A DNA stretch of 18,715 nt from a virus. The stretch is taken from IMG/VR virus record IMGVR_UViG_3300012117_000003, positions 1 through 18,715 of that record; one strand, 5' to 3'. Under the pieces are notes generated by a model. That model was given only the letters and a program-made list of their open reading frames with translations, did no database searches and was not told where the DNA came from. This document shows positions 1-18,715 of this stretch, one piece after another; the stretch's first letter is position 1, and each line of letters begins with the position of its first letter. The position numbers were made by a program, and so were the translations under genes.

Positions 1-123
1 CAATAGCCGCCTTTGTGTTTAATCAAATCCGCAAGGCGTTGCGGCAATTAGTGGATTATTTAGGTAGCGCCATGAGAACTAACGAGCAATATGTGGCCTC
101 CCTAGCGGCTATCAAGGGCAACC
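1..123. repeat. Left copy of exact 123-bp terminal direct repeat (circular-closure overlap)
   Basis: Read base by base: caatagccgcctttgtgtttaatc...atcaagggcaacc is identical to 18593-18715. Confidence 0.95.
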
Positions 124-3770: not shown

Positions 3771-3784
3771 ATTTACAGTGCTTG

Positions 3785-4100
3785 AAACCGAACAAAAACT
3801 GACATAAAAAAAGACAAAGTTAGGACAAAGTTAGGACGGATTATAACAAGGTTTTGATAAGGTATTCAAACATTCCTAGCACCCTACCAACGGCAGCAAT
3901 ATGGGATATGCTTCATGTTGCAGTCTCTTTATGGGCCGCGCAAAACTAGCGCAAAACTAGCGCAGAAAATCCAAGTTTTCATTTAGCACAAAGTTGGCAT
4001 AAAACTAGCACAAAAAAGCCCACCACAAAATCACCACAAATACACAACAAATCGGAGATACCAGGGGCCATAAAAGTGTGAAAAAGTGTGAGTAAAAAAA
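3785..4100. repeat. Array A of ~11-bp-phased A-tract degenerate repeats, including exact tandem 11-mers
   Basis: gacaaagttag x2 (3813-3834). gcgcaaaacta x2 plus degenerate gcgcagaaaat (3938-3970). aaaagtgtg/aaaaagtgtg (4072-4090). A-tracts at 3942, 3953, 3966, 3990, 4001, 4012, 4027, 4038, 4048. The + strand is A/C-rich and G/T-poor. No ORF. Confidence 0.7.
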
Positions 4101-4114
4101 GAGGGGGATTGTTC

Positions 4115-4372
4115 ATGAATAAGAACTTGATACCCTTTGATGCTATGTCCTCAGAGCGACACCGGGAATTGTCTGCCAGAGGCGGCAGGGCCAGCGGTGA
4201 GGCCCGCAGGAATAAAAAGGCACTCAGGGAGCAGCTACAGGCGAAAATGGAGCAGTACGCGCAGGCCGAGGGCTTTATAGACGATATAGGCGAGTTTAAT
4301 AGATGGAAAAAGCGCAGGGCTAAAGCGAGAGCCAAGAGAGAGCGAACCACGGGGGGAATCATAAAAAAGTAA
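4115..4372 (+). CDS. Small highly basic hypothetical protein (85 aa)
   Basis: ATG at 4115 with a GAGGGGG RBS 7 nt upstream, preferred over the GTG at 4088. Contains RELSARGGRASGEARRNKK and a C-terminal KKRRAKARAKRER tail, which suggests nucleic-acid binding. Confidence 0.6.
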   Translation: MNKNLIPFDAMSSERHRELSARGGRASGEARRNKKALREQLQAKMEQYAQAEGFIDDIGEFNRWKKRRAKARAKRERTTGGIIKK

Positions 4373-4520
4373 CCTTACATCATGCGGCTTTTATCCGGCA
4401 GTTTTATTACATACTGAAATACACCGCAAACCCGCATAACAAAAGTATTTGTAGCGGGCGAATGTTGCAGGGTATTGATATTTTTACCTATTGATTTAGG
4501 CAAACGGGAGGCGGGGCTAT

Positions 4521-5144
4521 ATGGGCGGCTATAATAGTGGAGGCCGGAACCGGACGCACAGCTACACGAACCAATGCAAGCAGCTTGACAGCTTCTATTT
4601 TGGCAAGGGTATTCCGCTCATGGAGGAAAAGGAGATAAAAAGCCTAGATCATACCATAAGCTGGAAAGATGGCGGCTCTATTGCGGTTGTCCTGCATCCC
4701 GGCAAGCTGGATGTGGGTTATGCCGCAGGAGCCGAACGAAAGGAAATCCACGATACTTTTTATTTTGATTCCGTCCCGAACAATTACGGCGGCGCGGATC
4801 GCTATTACTTTGAGTGTCCCGAATGTGGGCGGCGTTGCCGGTTCCTGTATCTGCACAAGCAGCATTTTAAATGTCGGAAGTGCGCCGACCTAAACTATTC
4901 CAGGCAGCGTTTGAACAACACAAATGAGGATATAGCAACCTACAAAATGCGGAAACTTCTGCATGATGGCTTTAAGGTAAAGGGGGCCTTGTCACCAATG
5001 GACGCCAGTACATACAGGCCGGATCGCCCAAAGGGTATGCACCAAAAAACATACATGCGGTTACGGATGCAGCTATTACGGGCGCAGCAGGATTATATCA
5101 GTTACTTGTGGGCGTTCGTGGGGAGATTATACGCAAGACAATAG
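4521..5144 (+). CDS. Zinc-ribbon hypothetical protein (207 aa)
   Basis: GGGAGG RBS 9 nt upstream. N-terminal GGYNSGGRNR. CPEC-x14-CRKC four-cysteine ribbon (YYFECPECGRRCRFLYLHKQHFKCRKCADLNYSRQ). Confidence 0.75.
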   Translation: MGGYNSGGRNRTHSYTNQCKQLDSFYFGKGIPLMEEKEIKSLDHTISWKDGGSIAVVLHPGKLDVGYAAGAERKEIHDTFYFDSVPNNYGGADRYYFECPECGRRCRFLYLHKQHFKCRKCADLNYSRQRLNNTNEDIATYKMRKLLHDGFKVKGALSPMDASTYRPDRPKGMHQKTYMRLRMQLLRAQQDYISYLWAFVGRLYARQ

Positions 5145-5149
5145 AGCGG

Positions 5150-5352
5150 CTAAAAGTTGCGGAAAGTTGCACATAAAAAAGGGATAAAACTGCCGGAAAA
5201 TGCCACCAAAAAAAAGATGAAAGCGCCACAACGCACCACAAAAAAAGAACGAGTAGTTTATTTTAGTTGACCCAAAAAAAGATCGGCAGAAATCGCCACC
5301 AAAAAAAGGCGTTGCCGCTCTGAAACGAAACAAAAAGCTACACAAAAAAACT
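5150..5352. repeat. Array B of ~11-bp-phased A-tract degenerate repeats
   Basis: A-tracts start at 5152, 5163, 5175, 5186, 5197, 5208, 5220, 5240, 5274, 5290, 5301, 5323, 5332 and 5344, at spacings of mostly 11-12 bp or multiples. Shares the AAAGTTG word with array A. No ORF. Confidence 0.7.
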
Positions 5353-5399
5353 ATGAGCATTAAATAAGGGCCAATGCGCATACAAGCCCCTAGCAAGCC

Positions 5400-5950
5400 C
5401 TACAAGGCGATTACCCGCTAAACGTGAAATGTCACGACAAAACCAACAGAACGCCGTGCAGGGCAATTCTAGCGGGCAGACAGGCATATAAAGCGGTGCC
5501 GTTTAAACCGGCAGCGGCTTTTGCTTTTGGTTGCACATGCGACAGAAAGAGGGCGCTCAAAAAAGTGCGGAGCGGGCCACGCCCGCTGCGGGCAGAAGTG
5601 TCCAGGGTGTACCATTTGGTACGGAGTGCGCGAGACGCACAGCGGGGATACCCCGTTTCAGGGTACCCTTGCAATGCTGCGTAGGGTATGGCATTTACAT
5701 TTTGTTCATCAGGCGTTGTCGTGCCTCTTGGCTGCGCAATTTTGCGCAACGAGATAAACGGATTATCGCACTTATTCAACAGCGAATTTTCGCCGGTGAC
5801 TTTTGCTCCATATATTTATGGCGCAAATTCCGTGGCCGGATTTTCGACCGCGAGAAAACGAATTATCCGAGGACGGTTTAACCGTCAGCGGCAATCACCT
5901 AAAAAGTCAAACGGGCCGCTCGTAATGAGTAGCCCGCTATTTTTTATTTC
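5400..5950 (+). ncRNA. Candidate large structured noncoding RNA (strand and ends uncertain)
   Basis: No credible CDS: only short, mutually overlapping Arg/Cys/Ala-rich track ORFs in several frames on both strands, none with an RBS. At least 10 perfect 5-7-bp GC-rich hairpins with 3-7-nt loops. Ends at a hairpin plus T-run on the + strand. Confidence 0.35.
5912..5949. terminator. Probable bidirectional intrinsic terminator between the noncoding region (+) and the TM2 gene (-)
   Basis: CGGGC-cg-CTC gtaat GAG-ta-GCCCG stem, followed by ctATTTTTTATTT on + and by TTTGACTTTTT on -. Confidence 0.55.
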
Positions 5951-5978
5951 CTTTAGTCCGGCGTTGCCCTATGTTCAT

Positions 5979-6260
5979 TTACCATTCGCGCAAATGCGCA
6001 CCTACATTGTCCTTATATATGCCTAATAGAATCTTAACCAGATCAGGTATAGCAAACAAATACATTACAAGGAGAGACGGTAAAACAACGGGGTCTACGA
6101 ATGAACTGCCGACACACACAAGCCCGATAATTAAGAATATCAGGCCGGATTTGATTTTACCAACATAGAGCCGGTGCAATCCCAAGAAGCCACCAAGCAA
6201 GCAAAGAATCAATGCGGTCTTTCGCTTCTTATCACTGGTGATGGTTCCATAGTTTGCCAT
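5979..6260 (-). CDS. TM2 domain-containing small membrane protein (93 aa)
   Basis: GGGGGTG RBS. KKRKTALILCLLGGFLGLHRLYVGKIKSGLIFLI is the characteristic TM2-domain pattern. Two predicted TM helices. Confidence 0.8.
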   Translation of the reverse strand: MANYGTITSDKKRKTALILCLLGGFLGLHRLYVGKIKSGLIFLIIGLVCVGSSFVDPVVLPSLLVMYLFAIPDLVKILLGIYKDNVGAHLREW

Positions 6261-6321
6261 AGCTGCACCCCCGTTGTCATTTGAAAACAGTATAGCACGG
6301 CCCCGGCGGGAATGGCAAGGG

Positions 6322-9710: not shown

Positions 9711-9750
9711 TATATCTTGCAGTAACTTTTTATAGCCTTTTCACGCTCTT

Positions 9751-9770
9751 GTGAGGTTTTTGTGAGGTTT
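9751..9770 (+). repeat. attP arm-type repeats, left arm: GTGAGGTTT x2 spaced 11 bp
   Basis: Exact 9-mers at 9751-9759 and 9762-9770. Confidence 0.6.
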
Positions 9771-9805
9771 TAGCGAAAATAAGCCACTAAAAGCAAAAGA
9801 ATAAA

Positions 9806-9840
9806 CCGCCTAACTTTGCTTTAGTTAAGCGGTTTTTCTT
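9806..9840. terminator. Hairpin plus T-run immediately 3' of the tRNA fragment (bidirectional terminator-like)
   Basis: CCGCCTAAC-tttgcttta-GTTAAGCGG (one mismatch). Followed by TTTTTCTT on + and by TTTATTCTTTT on -. Confidence 0.5.
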
Positions 9841-9890
9841 TGGTCTGAGTGGCGGGACTTGAACCCACGGCCTCTACCACCCCAAGGTAG
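9841..9890 (-). other. attP core: 3' 50 nt of a tRNA gene (anticodon arm to CCA), tRNA-Pro(GGG)-like
   Basis: Reverse complement reads ctacc-ttggggt-ggtag aggcc gtggg-ttcaagt-cccgc cactcag a cca. This gives a 5-bp anticodon stem; a 7-nt loop with U33, GGG and G37; a 5-nt variable loop; a T arm with a TTCAAGT loop and G53-C61; a 7-nt acceptor strand ending in G72; A73; and CCA. No D arm or 5' acceptor strand lies upstream. Confidence 0.65.
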
Positions 9891-9993
9891 AGGTTTTCTT
9901 TTTGCGTCTTATTATGGCTTGCGCCATTCTGTTATTTTATAAGGCTTTTCTTGTATGTCCTTGCTGTATCTTATTATAAAATTTAATAGATTC

Positions 9994-10033
9994 GTGAGGT
10001 TTCTAATTGGATTGTGAGGTTTTTGTGTGGTTT
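9994..10033 (+). repeat. attP arm-type repeats, right arm: GTGAGGTTT x2 plus GTGTGGTTT
   Basis: Copies at 9994-10002, 10014-10022 and 10025-10033 (the last one degenerate). Same orientation as the left-arm copies. The last two overlap the integrase 3' end. Confidence 0.6.
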
Positions 10034-12285: not shown

Positions 12286-12465
12286 ATGAGCGCAAATACT
12301 GATATTCGCAGAGAAGCGAAAGCCAATGGCGTGCCGCTCTGGAGAATCGCTGAATTTTTAAAAATTAGCGAACCCACAATGTCGCGTCGAATGCGTAAAG
12401 AAATGCCGGACGAAGAAAAAAAACAAATGCGTGAGATTATTTCACAGCTTGCCCAGGAGGTATGA
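12286..12465 (+). CDS. Cro-like small HTH protein (59 aa)
   Basis: ATG at 12286 downstream of an AAGGAGG. The track start at 12226 lies upstream of the predicted transcription start. HTH: GVPLWRIAEFLKISEPTMSRRMRKE. Confidence 0.65.
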   Translation: MSANTDIRREAKANGVPLWRIAEFLKISEPTMSRRMRKEMPDEEKKQMREIISQLAQEV

Positions 12466-12468
12466 ACA

Positions 12469-12705
12469 ATGGCCGCAAGGTTAATGAATACCGTGGATGA
12501 AACATTTACAAGGGCGCAAGCGGAAAATATCGGCGTATCTAAGAACTTTATACGGCAATCTGTCCGCAATGGGGCATTGCCTTGTGTGCGGGCCGGGACA
12601 AAATATCTTATAAATTGGAACGCCTTTATGTCCTATCTGGAAAATCCCGCGCCAGCGGTGCAACCGGAGCCGAGTATTGGCGGTATTCGCCGGGTAGGGG
12701 GTTGA
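12469..12705 (+). CDS. xis: Excisionase-family (MerR-like HTH) DNA-binding protein (78 aa)
   Basis: AGGAGG RBS 8 nt upstream. FTRAQAENIGVSKNFIRQSVRNGALPCVRAGTKYLINWNAFMSYL matches the excisionase-family HTH pattern. Confidence 0.6.
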   Translation: MAARLMNTVDETFTRAQAENIGVSKNFIRQSVRNGALPCVRAGTKYLINWNAFMSYLENPAPAVQPEPSIGGIRRVGG

Positions 12706-12707
12706 AA

Positions 12708-13004
12708 ATGTCAAATTGTAATCTACTTGATTTACTTTCCGAGGGGCGCGAAAATGCGAAAACAGCGCGGGAATTGATGTTGCCTTTAGGTTTCGATAAT
12801 GTCAGGGAGGTTGCCGCTGAGATCGCACGGCTACGAAAGGCAGGGACGATTATTTGTTCTGTGACCGATTCCGACGTAAAAGGCTATTACCTCCCCTCAT
12901 GCCGAGACGATATTATACGCTTCGTCCGCAAAACTGAATCCAGAATCCGAGAAACTGAAAAGATGTTGCAGTCCGCCAGAGATTTTCTACAAGGCGAGGT
13001 GTAA
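12708..13004 (+). CDS. Hypothetical protein, probable winged-helix (98 aa)
   Basis: ATG at 12708; the track start at 12582 overlaps xis. NAKTARELMLPLGFDNVREVAAEIARLRKAGTIICS. Confidence 0.6.
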   Translation: MSNCNLLDLLSEGRENAKTARELMLPLGFDNVREVAAEIARLRKAGTIICSVTDSDVKGYYLPSCRDDIIRFVRKTESRIRETEKMLQSARDFLQGEV

Positions 13005-17468: not shown

Positions 17469-17557
17469 TGTTTATACCGCAATTTGTTCTTGGTGTCATT
17501 GTGGGGATCGTGGGCGTATGCGTAGTCGCAGTTATCTATAGCCAGTATAAGAAATAA
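17468..17557 (+). CDS. Possible 29-aa single-TM peptide (MFIPQFVLGVIVGIVGVCVVAVIYSQYKK)
   Basis: TGATG start/stop overlap with the preceding gene. Uniformly hydrophobic core with a KK tail. Below the track cutoff. Confidence 0.35.
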   Translation: MFIPQFVLGVIVGIVGVCVVAVIYSQYKK

Positions 17558-17563
17558 AAACTT

Positions 17564-17614
17564 TTGTGCCTGTGTGCCATTCAGAGAAAAATAATCTATT
17601 GTGCCGTGTGCCAT
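17564..17614 (+). repeat. Direct repeat TTGTGCC(T)GTGTGCCAT x2 immediately upstream of the tape measure gene
   Basis: Copies at 17564-17580 and 17599-17614, with starts 35 bp apart, in the only intergenic gap (77 bp) of the long rightward operon. Confidence 0.5.
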
Positions 17615-17634
17615 AAACCGAAAGTTGGTGAATT

Positions 17635-18715
17635 ATGGCAGAAGGTCGCGTAGAAATTTCAACTGAATTGGACAACACAGGCATAAAAAAAGGCATTTCT
17701 AATCTTCCTAAAGTTTTCAATCAGTTTAAATCCGCAGTAAGAGATATTGCGGGCGCGTTGGACACTTCCTTTGGCCCCAAACAGCAAAAGCAGATTGACA
17801 CATTAACACAGCGGCTTGCCCGACAGCAAGAAGCGGCCCAAAAAGCGGCCCGCGCCGTTGACGATATCCGGCGGCAATATGAAGCAGTAGCGGGCATGGA
17901 AACCACTCCTGCATCACTCCGCAAGATGGAAACCGAACTTGCCAGAGTGCAAAAGGAAATCCAGAAAGCCGAAAAAGAATATGAAAATCTGGAATCGCAA
18001 TTACTTAAAGTGCAAGAAAGAGCGGCATTTGAAACAATGGCCTCCGGTGTAGCTTCACCCAAAAATGCTACGGAAATGGAGCGGCTTACTCGCGAATTGG
18101 ACGCTGCCGGACAAAAGCTGGGCGGGATGGACGATAGGGCGCAGCAGTTACAATCATCCATTGAAAGAATCAGGCTTAGTCCAGAGGGATCACAAGAAGC
18201 GCAAAACCTAGCAAGCAAGCTTCAAGGCGCGGAAGAAAAAGCAGCACGGCTTGCAAATGAGGCAGATTTTACCGCAAGTCGGCTGGAGGGATTAAAGGAC
18301 GGGCCGGAGCAAGGAGAAACCGCATTTCAAAAAATGCGCAACGCTGTATCACAAGTCGGCGGCGCTGTAGGTTCTATAGTAAGCAAAGGTGTATCAGCTT
18401 TTGCAAGGCTCGCAAATGTAGTATCACAGGTTGGAACCGGCATTTCCTCTATTGCCCAAAAAGGCGTTTCCGGCATGGGTAAACTATTTGGATCAATCAA
18501 AAAGGTTATAACCGGATTAAAAAATACCACCAAGCACACAAACAAGGCCGGTGGCGCTCTTGAAAAATTCGGTAAGCGAATATTAAAACTTGCAATAGCC
18601 GCCTTTGTGTTTAATCAAATCCGCAAGGCGTTGCGGCAATTAGTGGATTATTTAGGTAGCGCCATGAGAACTAACGAGCAATATGTGGCCTCCCTAGCGG
18701 CTATCAAGGGCAACC
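17635..18715 (+). CDS. Tail tape measure protein, N-terminal part (continues across the junction into 1-2657; total 1,204 aa)
   Basis: ATG at 17635 follows an in-frame TGA (17629-17631) and a GGTGA. There is no stop before the window end, so the ORF is missing from the supplied track. The phase of 18593-18715 equals that of 1-123 (position 3 starts a codon). 958 + 2657 nt = 1,205 codons including the stop. The N-terminal ~250 aa is an Ala/Glu/Gln/Lys-rich coiled coil, followed by the hydrophobic segment LKLAIAAFVFNQI, as in siphophage TMPs. Confidence 0.85.
   Translation, partial: MAEGRVEISTELDNTGIKKGISNLPKVFNQFKSAVRDIAGALDTSFGPKQQKQIDTLTQRLARQQEAAQKAARAVDDIRRQYEAVAGMETTPASLRKMETELARVQKEIQKAEKEYENLESQLLKVQERAAFETMASGVASPKNATEMERLTRELDAAGQKLGGMDDRAQQLQSSIERIRLSPEGSQEAQNLASKLQGAEEKAARLANEADFTASRLEGLKDGPEQGETAFQKMRNAVSQVGGAVGSIVSKGVSAFARLANVVSQVGTGISSIAQKGVSGMGKLFGSIKKVITGLKNTTKHTNKAGGALEKFGKRILKLAIAAFVFNQIRKALRQLVDYLGSAMRTNEQYVASLAAIKGN
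18593..18715. repeat. Right copy of exact 123-bp terminal direct repeat
   Basis: Identical to 1-123; the window ends at the end of the repeat. Confidence 0.95.

Follow-up and report, generated by a model that had tools for sequence, protein, structure and literature searches.

A hairpin-dense, gene-free region between convergent operons of a circular viral element, tentatively read as an expanded terminator array

The window analysed here is the whole of IMG/VR virus record IMGVR_UViG_3300012117_000003, an 18,715-nucleotide (nt) stretch of viral DNA, and our subject is its gene-free gap at positions 5145–5978, which runs from the stop codon of a zinc-ribbon gene to the stop codon of a TM2-domain gene and separates two convergent operons. 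A sequence-only reading had proposed that the hairpin-packed part of this gap, 5400–5950, encodes a large structured RNA, possibly of the ROOL or GOLLD type. Our analysis upholds a non-coding, hairpin-rich region that ends in a terminator, while the assignment to an ornate RNA class found no support. We tentatively read the region as a plus-strand, 3'-untranslated array of hairpins derived from a terminator hairpin, acting in cis as a terminator, insulator and RNA stabiliser between the convergent operons.

The exceptional hairpin density that had drawn attention to the region was reproduced by a mechanical count. When perfect hairpins were defined by a stem of at least 5 and a loop of 3–9, 5400–5950 contained 13 of them, against 2.8 ± 2.0 in 551-nt windows elsewhere in the element (at most 6 outside the gap) and 3.7 ± 1.9 in shuffled versions of the same stretch, 1 of 200 of which reached 11; all eleven hairpins and palindromes listed by the sequence-only reading were recovered at their positions. 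The minimum free energy (MFE) z-score of 5400–5950 was −5.9 on the plus strand and −5.7 on the minus strand, and none of 100 shuffles reached as stable a fold; the core of the region (5531–5900) gave −4.2 and −4.6, respectively. A 150-nt sliding scan returned 5101–5925 as the sole long low-z run in the element. Since the plus strand of 5145–5400 had a z-score of 0.03 with dinucleotide shuffles, that is, is unstructured, the dense part of the gap is indeed its 3' part, 5400–5950. The predicted fold is a chain of local hairpins of 5–7 base pairs (bp), the only elements that the centroid retains; these hairpins are short and perfectly Watson-Crick paired, with loops mostly of 3–5 nt, and among those of 5400–5950 we found no GNRA or UNCG loops. 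The GC content of the hairpin part is 0.54–0.55. As a separate observation, the self-complementary hexamer TGCGCA has four of its six copies in the element within 5375–6000, including TGCGCAATTTTGCGCA (5733–5748) and GCGCAAATGCGCA (5988–6000, inside the 3' end of the TM2 gene).

That the gap lacks a credible gene, as had also been proposed, was borne out by codon scores, by family searches and by the public record, in which no gene is called in 5145–5978. All gap open reading frames (ORFs) of at least 45 amino acids (aa) have a negative per-codon log-likelihood and resemble antisense ORFs elsewhere; the sole exception in the gap is a 37-aa ORF in its A-rich spacer, with a slightly positive score of +0.08, and in a leave-one-out test all 22 of the 22 accepted genes scored positive. 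No gap ORF matched a Pfam or PHROG family even at lax thresholds, and the 116-aa ORF, the longest on the plus strand of the gap, had no homologue among 1.84 billion representative proteins. A decayed terminase or other gene was ruled out by tblastn, in which the terminase and neighbouring proteins of the related contig L009 (described below) left no trace in the gap. A type I toxin-antitoxin system was also considered and rejected, there being no plausible small hydrophobic ORF in 5400–5950 and no promoter on either strand.

The gap is made up of the following features, with bit scores taken from a covariance model of four repeated hairpin units, H1–H4:

5145–5399, no strand assigned: A-rich spacer, unstructured on the plus strand, with the iteron-like repeats CCACCAAAAAAA (two copies) and CACCACAAAAAAA (one copy)
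5400–5950, plus strand: hairpin-dense non-coding region, as judged by hairpin count, z-scores, and codon and homology tests
5450–5477, plus strand: 28-nt block in common with L009, 26 of 28 positions identical
5484–5530, plus strand: T1, a terminator-like hairpin AAAGC..UGCCG/CGGCA..GCUUU, then UGCUUUUGG; contains H1
5490–5521, plus strand: unit H1 (the T1 stem), 34.6 bits
5564–5595, plus strand: unit H2, 34.9 bits, within a 59-nt helix at 5548–5606
5618–5649, plus strand: unit H3, 33.4 bits
5864–5895, plus strand: unit H4, directly upstream of T2, 33.7 bits
5896–5950, not confined to one strand: T2, a predicted bidirectional intrinsic terminator (A-run, 9-bp GC-rich interrupted stem, T-run) that closes both the plus-strand unit and the TM2 operon

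In the predicted fold, both T1 and T2 have the make-up of an intrinsic terminator, a GC-rich stem-loop followed by a U-run, and the hairpins between them are without U-runs. T1 folds to −16.0 kcal/mol on the plus strand and −14.4 kcal/mol on the minus strand; for T2 the values are −17.3 kcal/mol (z −3.9) and −17.9 kcal/mol (z −3.4), with a T6 run on the plus strand and a T5 run on the minus strand. The region therefore closes on the plus strand with a hairpin and T-run at 5896–5950, where the sequence-only reading had placed its end, and this terminator is predicted to function on the minus strand as well. Several weak sites consisting of a hairpin and a T-run are also predicted on the minus strand of the spacer (5145–5399). 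We found no sigma-70-type promoter in the gap and no promoter on either strand.

Within the array, four paralogous units lie in the same orientation and follow the pattern CGG-N-hairpin-N-GCGG, with (G/A)CGG-N preceding and N-GCGG(G/C) following the stem (in another rendering, CGG(A/U) on the 5' side and (A)GCGG on the 3' side). MAFFT aligns the four stems in register, and at four of the six stem positions both partners have changed; 87.5% of the stem cells are paired, a value equalled by 1 of 500 shuffles. The covariance model of the four units, R1, scores 33–35 bits on the plus strand and at most 16 bits on the minus strand, and a search of the window and 70 kb of related loci with it turned up no other convincing copy. 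Of the eight GCGG tetramers in the region, six are adjacent to a hairpin. As the units were selected for being hairpins, these findings are suggestive and not proof. CRISPR-repeat mimicry was considered and rejected, as the unit stems differ in sequence. A 59-nt domain at 5548–5606 folds to −29.4 kcal/mol (z −3.0) on the plus strand versus −17.4 kcal/mol (z +0.3) on the minus strand and, because of this domain and the common orientation of the four units, a plus-strand transcript remains plausible.

Comparison with related loci places the array at an operon end that is much simpler elsewhere. The only close relative found was L009, an IMG/VR contig that is the same as JGI locus L011, whose sigma factor is 90% identical to that of the window; the other relatives of this sigma factor are two distant ones. 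DNA identity to L009 is 76–88% over the sigma gene and the last part of the tape-measure-like gene, and downstream of the sigma gene in L009 a phrog_2412 gene, a gene for the terminase large subunit (TerL) and a 79-aa gene replace the zinc-ribbon gene and the gap; the window has a shortened homologue of the phrog_2412 protein, with 35% identity to that of L009. The gap's only similarity to any sequence found is the 28-nt block at 5450–5477. In L009, the operon terminator follows this block directly; it is a 10-bp stem that contains two G·U pairs and folds to −20.3 kcal/mol on the plus strand, is plus-strand-specific by virtue of those pairs, and has a loop, CUAAAC, related to UUUAAAC and UUUAA. 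As far as the one close relative found allows a judgement, conservation of the hairpin region among related elements, whose absence the sequence-only reading had named as grounds against its RNA, is lacking: L009 carries only the 28-nt block and one terminator.

Wider searches added little to this comparison. The 18-mer core of the 28-nt block occurs nowhere else in IMG/VR beyond L009, and its one match in GTDB genomes, in a Chloroflexia metagenome-assembled genome, has dissimilar flanks and is a chance match. Of three exact or degenerate gap patterns searched in IMG/VR, one found only L009 and two found nothing; blastn of the gap against phage and plasmid records gave no match, and JGI contigs contained no homologue of the gap region. 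Copies of the gap from Logan, JGI and ENA assemblies are identical and offer no compensatory single-nucleotide changes, the only differences among the copies being three substitutions between loci L008 and L006, in or upstream of the zinc-ribbon gene.

We also fetched the genomic contexts of nine relatives of the flanking proteins. The pairing of a sigma gene with a zinc-ribbon gene recurs in the distant loci L002 and L016, and L015 has the two in reverse order (zinc-ribbon, then sigma); none of the three has any sequence in common with the gap. L002 has a gene-free gap of 1060 nt at the same position, after the sigma and zinc-ribbon genes, which is hairpin-dense (z −5.3 and −4.6) and built from a different palindrome family: CCGCATATATGCGG in three copies, CGCCATACATGGCG and CCCCATACATGGGG. 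These five palindromes lie at L002 positions 1247–1262, 2618–2631, 2645–2658, 2764–2778 and 2943–2956, and one of them separates the ribosome-binding site of the zinc-ribbon gene from its start codon, as though inserted there. These palindromes could be operators or else palindromic units that were inserted. A gap of this kind does not generally accompany the zinc-ribbon gene, as L005, L014 and L015 have none.

Taken as a terminator array, the hairpin-dense region would be the untranslated 3' end of a long plus-strand operon comprising the replication genes and the genes for the tape-measure-like, sigma and zinc-ribbon proteins, laid out as an unstructured A-rich spacer, the 28-nt block with T1, about 370 nt of packed GC-rich hairpins, and finally T2. 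The ancestral operon end would have consisted of the 28-nt block and a single terminator, as in L009, so that the block and T1 would be inherited, and the array of about 450 nt would have grown as the terminator-type hairpin was duplicated and diverged and as more local hairpins were added; since four units are paralogous to the T1 hairpin, growth by duplication of that hairpin is probable. Transcripts that pass T1 would fold co-transcriptionally into a chain of stable hairpins, which could halt RNA polymerase, or slow it, ahead of a collision with the convergent TM2 operon and could block 3'-exonucleases, as tandem terminators and arrays of repetitive extragenic palindromes (REPs) and bacterial interspersed mosaic elements (BIMEs) do. 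That the region serves such a cis-acting role at the RNA level, in termination, in insulation against convergent transcription and in protection of the 3' end, is a possibility that we favour with caution.

Several observations are consistent with this account: the site lies between convergent operons, T1 and T2 each combine a hairpin with a U-run, and the equivalent operon end of L009 consists only of the 28-nt block and one terminator; in addition, the units are directional, the 5548–5606 domain is plus-strand-specific by 12 kcal/mol, the centroid is purely local and the region is non-coding. The likeness to tandem or bidirectional Rho-independent terminators extends to the GC-rich hairpins of T1 and T2 with their U-runs downstream, the two-way action predicted for T2, the position at a convergent-operon junction and the single homologous terminator at the same operon end in L009. 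Normal terminator regions differ in that they lack anything like the roughly 370 nt and some ten extra hairpins without U-runs that separate T1 from T2, and the 13 hairpins far exceed what termination needs. Other points also weigh against the account. The gap has no sigma-70-type promoter, and T1 would limit read-through; folding of the whole region is equal on both strands (core z −4.2 versus −4.6); and G·U pairs are not enriched on the plus strand (18 versus 16 in the MFE structure, and 3 versus 7 at stem flanks). Perfect stems with short loops and no GNRA or UNCG motifs would suit DNA palindromes equally well, and the covariation of the units is partly circular because they were chosen for being hairpins.

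A large ornate RNA, the interpretation originally suggested, found no support in the analysis: Rfam 15 was negative, the centroid contains only local hairpins and there is no overall strand asymmetry. Searches with all 4227 families of Rfam 15 gave nothing at gathering thresholds on the whole window or on seven related loci, and hence no match to ROOL, GOLLD, HEARO or raiA, which we take to be included in this release. Lowering the threshold to E ≤ 10 for 5000–6300 returned HCV_J750 at 19.8 bits (gathering score 90) and COG3860 at 12.2 bits (gathering score 42.5), both unrelated families at chance level. The gap does resemble ROOL and GOLLD RNAs (PMC12286853, PMC5737381) in its similar length, its phage or prophage context, its lack of an ORF and its strongly negative z-score, but it differs from them in having no covariance-model match, no tRNA neighbours, no multi-domain long-range architecture, no homologues and no covariation. 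The tRNA-gene neighbourhood that ROOL and GOLLD frequently occupy in phage genomes, a typical and not a defining trait, has no counterpart in the window.

Rather unlikely, in our view, is a cis-acting site at the DNA level, that is, a replication origin or a pac/cos packaging site of a satellite lacking TerL, an alternative that the sequence-only reading had itself raised in naming an origin or a packaging site. As an origin, the region would combine iterons and bent DNA in 5145–5360 with single-strand initiation hairpins used by the element's own primase-helicase. The 5' part of the gap, 5145–5400, is the most A-tract-rich of the element, with seven runs of at least five A residues about 31 nt apart and CCACCA(C)AAAAAA repeats, and the repeats and phased A-tracts found in 5145–5360 (among them the CCACCA(C)AAA repeats of the 5' part of the gap) would suit an iteron-type origin, as would the related CACCACAAA motifs present both in 5145–5360 and in the other gene-free region, 3771–4087. 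The element encodes a DnaD/O-like initiator and a primase-helicase, with no obvious iterons inside those genes, and no origin has been identified in it. The strand-symmetric folding, the perfect palindromes, the concentration of TGCGCA (four of six copies in 5375–6000) and the bracketing of the core by two terminators, which would shield it from transcription, also fit a DNA-level site.

The hairpin part is, however, GC-rich (0.54–0.55) and not an AT-rich unwinding element, DnaA boxes do not exceed chance, and about 8.8 kb separate the region from the replication genes. No single dimeric protein could read the palindromes, since all of them differ, and the directional units, covarying stems and non-palindromic flanks point to reading in single-stranded form. 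A better candidate for iterons or a pac site is the second gene-free, A-rich region (about 3771–4115, between the sigma and phrog_2412 genes), in which four different 11-nt tandem repeats, GACAAAGTTAG, GCGCAAAACTA, CACCACAAATA and AAAAGTGTGA, make up four repeat sets within 3771–4087; on sequence grounds we regard it as a candidate iteron or pac region. For packaging in particular, the element has no capsid, portal or TerL gene, L009 has TerL where the zinc-ribbon gene and gap lie here, and the 28-nt block in common with this terminase-bearing contig is a putative terminase recognition site.

Known systems offer partial parallels to such a DNA-level site. The intergenic region of phage f1, about 0.5 kb without an ORF, forms a chain of hairpins for packaging and priming in single-stranded DNA, and RSF1010 (ssiA/ssiB) has iteron repeats beside hairpins. 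The gap resembles f1/M13 hairpins A–E and RSF1010 ssiA/ssiB in its ORF-free hairpin chain and in the iteron repeats next to its hairpins, but the element has no rolling-circle Rep or relaxase, and its DnaD/O-like initiator and primase-helicase are typical of double-stranded theta/sigma replication. The non-coding origins of Firmicutes phages and the large non-coding region of PLE, which holds an origin and abundant ncRNAs (PMC7567579), are likewise gene-free, contain direct and inverted repeats and, in the latter case, belong to a small dependent element; here, by contrast, the hairpins lie in GC-rich sequence, and iteron-like repeats of better quality are those at 3771–4087.

We consider it improbable that the region is a stand-alone structured RNA of a new class, about 400–550 nt long, that acts in trans as a protein-binding scaffold or decoy and is expressed from a promoter that the sigma factor of the element recognises. 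The very low z-score, the region's own 3' terminator T2, the plus-strand-specific domain and the hairpin-dense gap (z about −5) at the syntenic position in L002 are compatible with it, as are the directional repeated units, which are putative binding sites for one protein. A precedent exists in phage ICP1 and its PLE satellites, which produce abundant non-coding transcripts from ORF-free regions (PMC7567579). Against a trans-acting RNA, there is no Rfam match, no recognised promoter and no long-range or multi-domain architecture in the centroid; the region is absent from the close relative L009, and with no homologue found it has no covariation support. Moreover, it shows no sequence similarity to the L002 gap, whereas an 18-nt hairpin in the 5' untranslated region (UTR) of the zinc-ribbon gene was kept between these two elements. 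This hairpin, CCTATTGATTTAGGCAAA, lies at 4487–4504, just upstream of the ribosome-binding site, and is identical in the window and L002 (about 1216–1233) although the two zinc-ribbon proteins are only 53% identical; it is likely to be a regulatory 5'-UTR element. Functional non-coding sequence can therefore be retained at such a distance, and the downstream gap was not.

We judge it about equally improbable that the hairpins are REP/BIME-like palindromes, or palindromes resembling MITEs (miniature inverted-repeat transposable elements), that accumulated where an intergenic site was permissive and that do little or nothing for the element itself. REP arrays typically lie at 3' ends between convergent genes, where they are thought to stabilise mRNA and aid termination. 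L009, the close relative, lacks this orphan region, the hairpins form small paralogous families with conserved flanks, and L002 has its own, different palindrome family with one copy as if inserted before the zinc-ribbon start. The likeness to the REPs and BIMEs of enterobacteria and pseudomonads thus covers arrays of short, imperfect palindromes, conserved flanks, variable stems and a 3'-UTR location between convergent genes. Unlike in those arrays, all four units here have the same orientation and do not alternate, CGG(A/U) stands in place of a GTAG-type 5' tetranucleotide, no dispersed copies or REP-associated tyrosine transposase (RAYT) are known, and the region lies in a mobile element and not a chromosome. 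The units are confined to this one region of the element, with none in 70 kb of related loci; no terminal inverted repeats or target duplications were seen; and perfect stems would decay without selection.

Slightly more doubtful still is a new hairpin-array RNA of an undescribed family of small, integrative, satellite-like elements that carry sigma and zinc-ribbon genes, an RNA whose units would bind a protein of the element or its helper and whose analogue would be the L002 gap. A hidden or frameshifted protein-coding gene, which the several overlapping ORFs of 78–116 aa might suggest, is essentially excluded by the negative codon scores of all gap ORFs of at least 45 aa (only the 37-aa ORF reaching +0.08), the absence of Pfam or PHROG matches at lax thresholds and of any match to the 116-aa ORF in 1.84 billion proteins, the absence of a tblastn remnant of the L009 terminase or its neighbours, and the lack of a call in the public record.

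The element that carries the region was assembled as a closed circle. The first 123 nt of the window (1–123) are identical to its last 123 nt (18593–18715), which gives a circle of 18,592 bp, and a Logan contig that represents a second assembly of this element shows a circular permutation with respect to the window. Its minus-strand genes include a tyrosine integrase and a CI-like repressor, and its replication genes encode a DnaD/O-like initiator, a primase-helicase and a RusA-like resolvase. On the plus strand are genes for a 1204-aa tape-measure-like protein, a sigma-70-family factor, an 85–94-aa phrog_2412 protein and the 207-aa zinc-ribbon protein, and the TM2-domain gene and a 71-aa gene lie convergently on the minus strand. 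No ORF in the window has sufficient size or similarity to be a capsid, portal or terminase large subunit gene, and on this sequence evidence we infer that the element is satellite-like or defective and integrative. The features that flank the gap or mark integration are:

4521–5144, plus strand: 207-aa zinc-ribbon gene (CxxC...CxxC), the last gene of the long plus-strand operon
5979–6260, minus strand: TM2-domain membrane protein gene, convergent with the plus-strand operon
About 9749–10033, beside the integrase gene: attP, with a tRNA-Pro 3' fragment and arm-type repeats

The attP fragment corresponds to the 3' part of a tRNA-Pro(GGG)-like gene on the minus strand (about 9840–9890) and is flanked by the arm-type repeats TTGTGAGGTTT at 9749–9771, 9993–10005 and 10012–10033. 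With attP at about 9750–10030 next to the integrase gene, the gap at 5145–5978 was ruled out as the attachment site. ARAGORN found no tRNA or tmRNA genes in the window, the fragment at attP being its sole tRNA trace. In L016, an NCBI genome contig, a tRNA 3' fragment has on either side a copy of an inverted duplication of about 85 nt (12386–12470 and 12790–12880) that stems from a 103-aa gene's 3' end, which suggests that two related small elements integrated head to head. Elsewhere in the window, TTGTGCC(T/G)TGTGCCAT occurs twice at 17565–17616, with the copies 35 nt apart, immediately upstream of where the tape-measure-like gene starts, and the pair is a possible operator or promoter element; the 150-nt scan window that starts at 17551, near these repeats, has a z-score of about −6.8.

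The TM2 protein has no relative above 50% identity, and the zinc-ribbon protein has nine relatives, the closest at 53%. The zinc-ribbon proteins form a rare family (the window, L002, L005, L006 and L013–L016) that has no Pfam, PHROG or NCBIfam name and is marked by an MGGxNSG N-terminus and the motifs VPNNYGG, CPxC...CRxC and PKGMHQKTY. The AlphaFold2 (AF2) model of the window's protein is rated confident, with a predicted local distance difference test score (pLDDT) of 79, and has no fold match in PDB or BFVD. Members adjoin phage sigma factors in the window, L002, L015 and L016 and also occur in the small integrase/primase-helicase elements L005, L013 and L014; the family may be a late-gene regulator of satellites. 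A 17-nt inverted repeat with 16 of 17 positions matching, TTATCCGGCAGTTTTAT / ATAAAACTGCCGGAAAA at 4391–4407 and 5184–5200, brackets the zinc-ribbon gene (blast E about 0.05), and in L002 the homologue is enclosed by a 28-nt inverted repeat that is weaker; such repeats could mark a module boundary or allow pairing between the 5' and 3' UTRs. A role of the gap as an antisense to the element's leader regions, after the manner of P4 or PLE, was rejected, the only match being one 14–17-nt inverted repeat that flanks the zinc-ribbon gene.

Taken together, the region is for now best filed, with due reserve, among arrays of hairpins and terminators at convergent junctions, as an unusually expanded case for which a DNA-level function is possible. 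If this is correct, it would be an ordinary, though unusually expanded, terminator and insulator region, and it would caution that hairpin density and a very low z-score do not by themselves identify an ornate RNA. As current databases hold no homologues, the region does not yet make a long-standing question testable. If it proves instead to be a discrete RNA, an origin or a packaging site, it would help to define the replication or mobilisation of a little-known type of small integrative element, one that has no capsid or terminase genes and encodes a sigma factor together with zinc-ribbon and tape-measure-like proteins.

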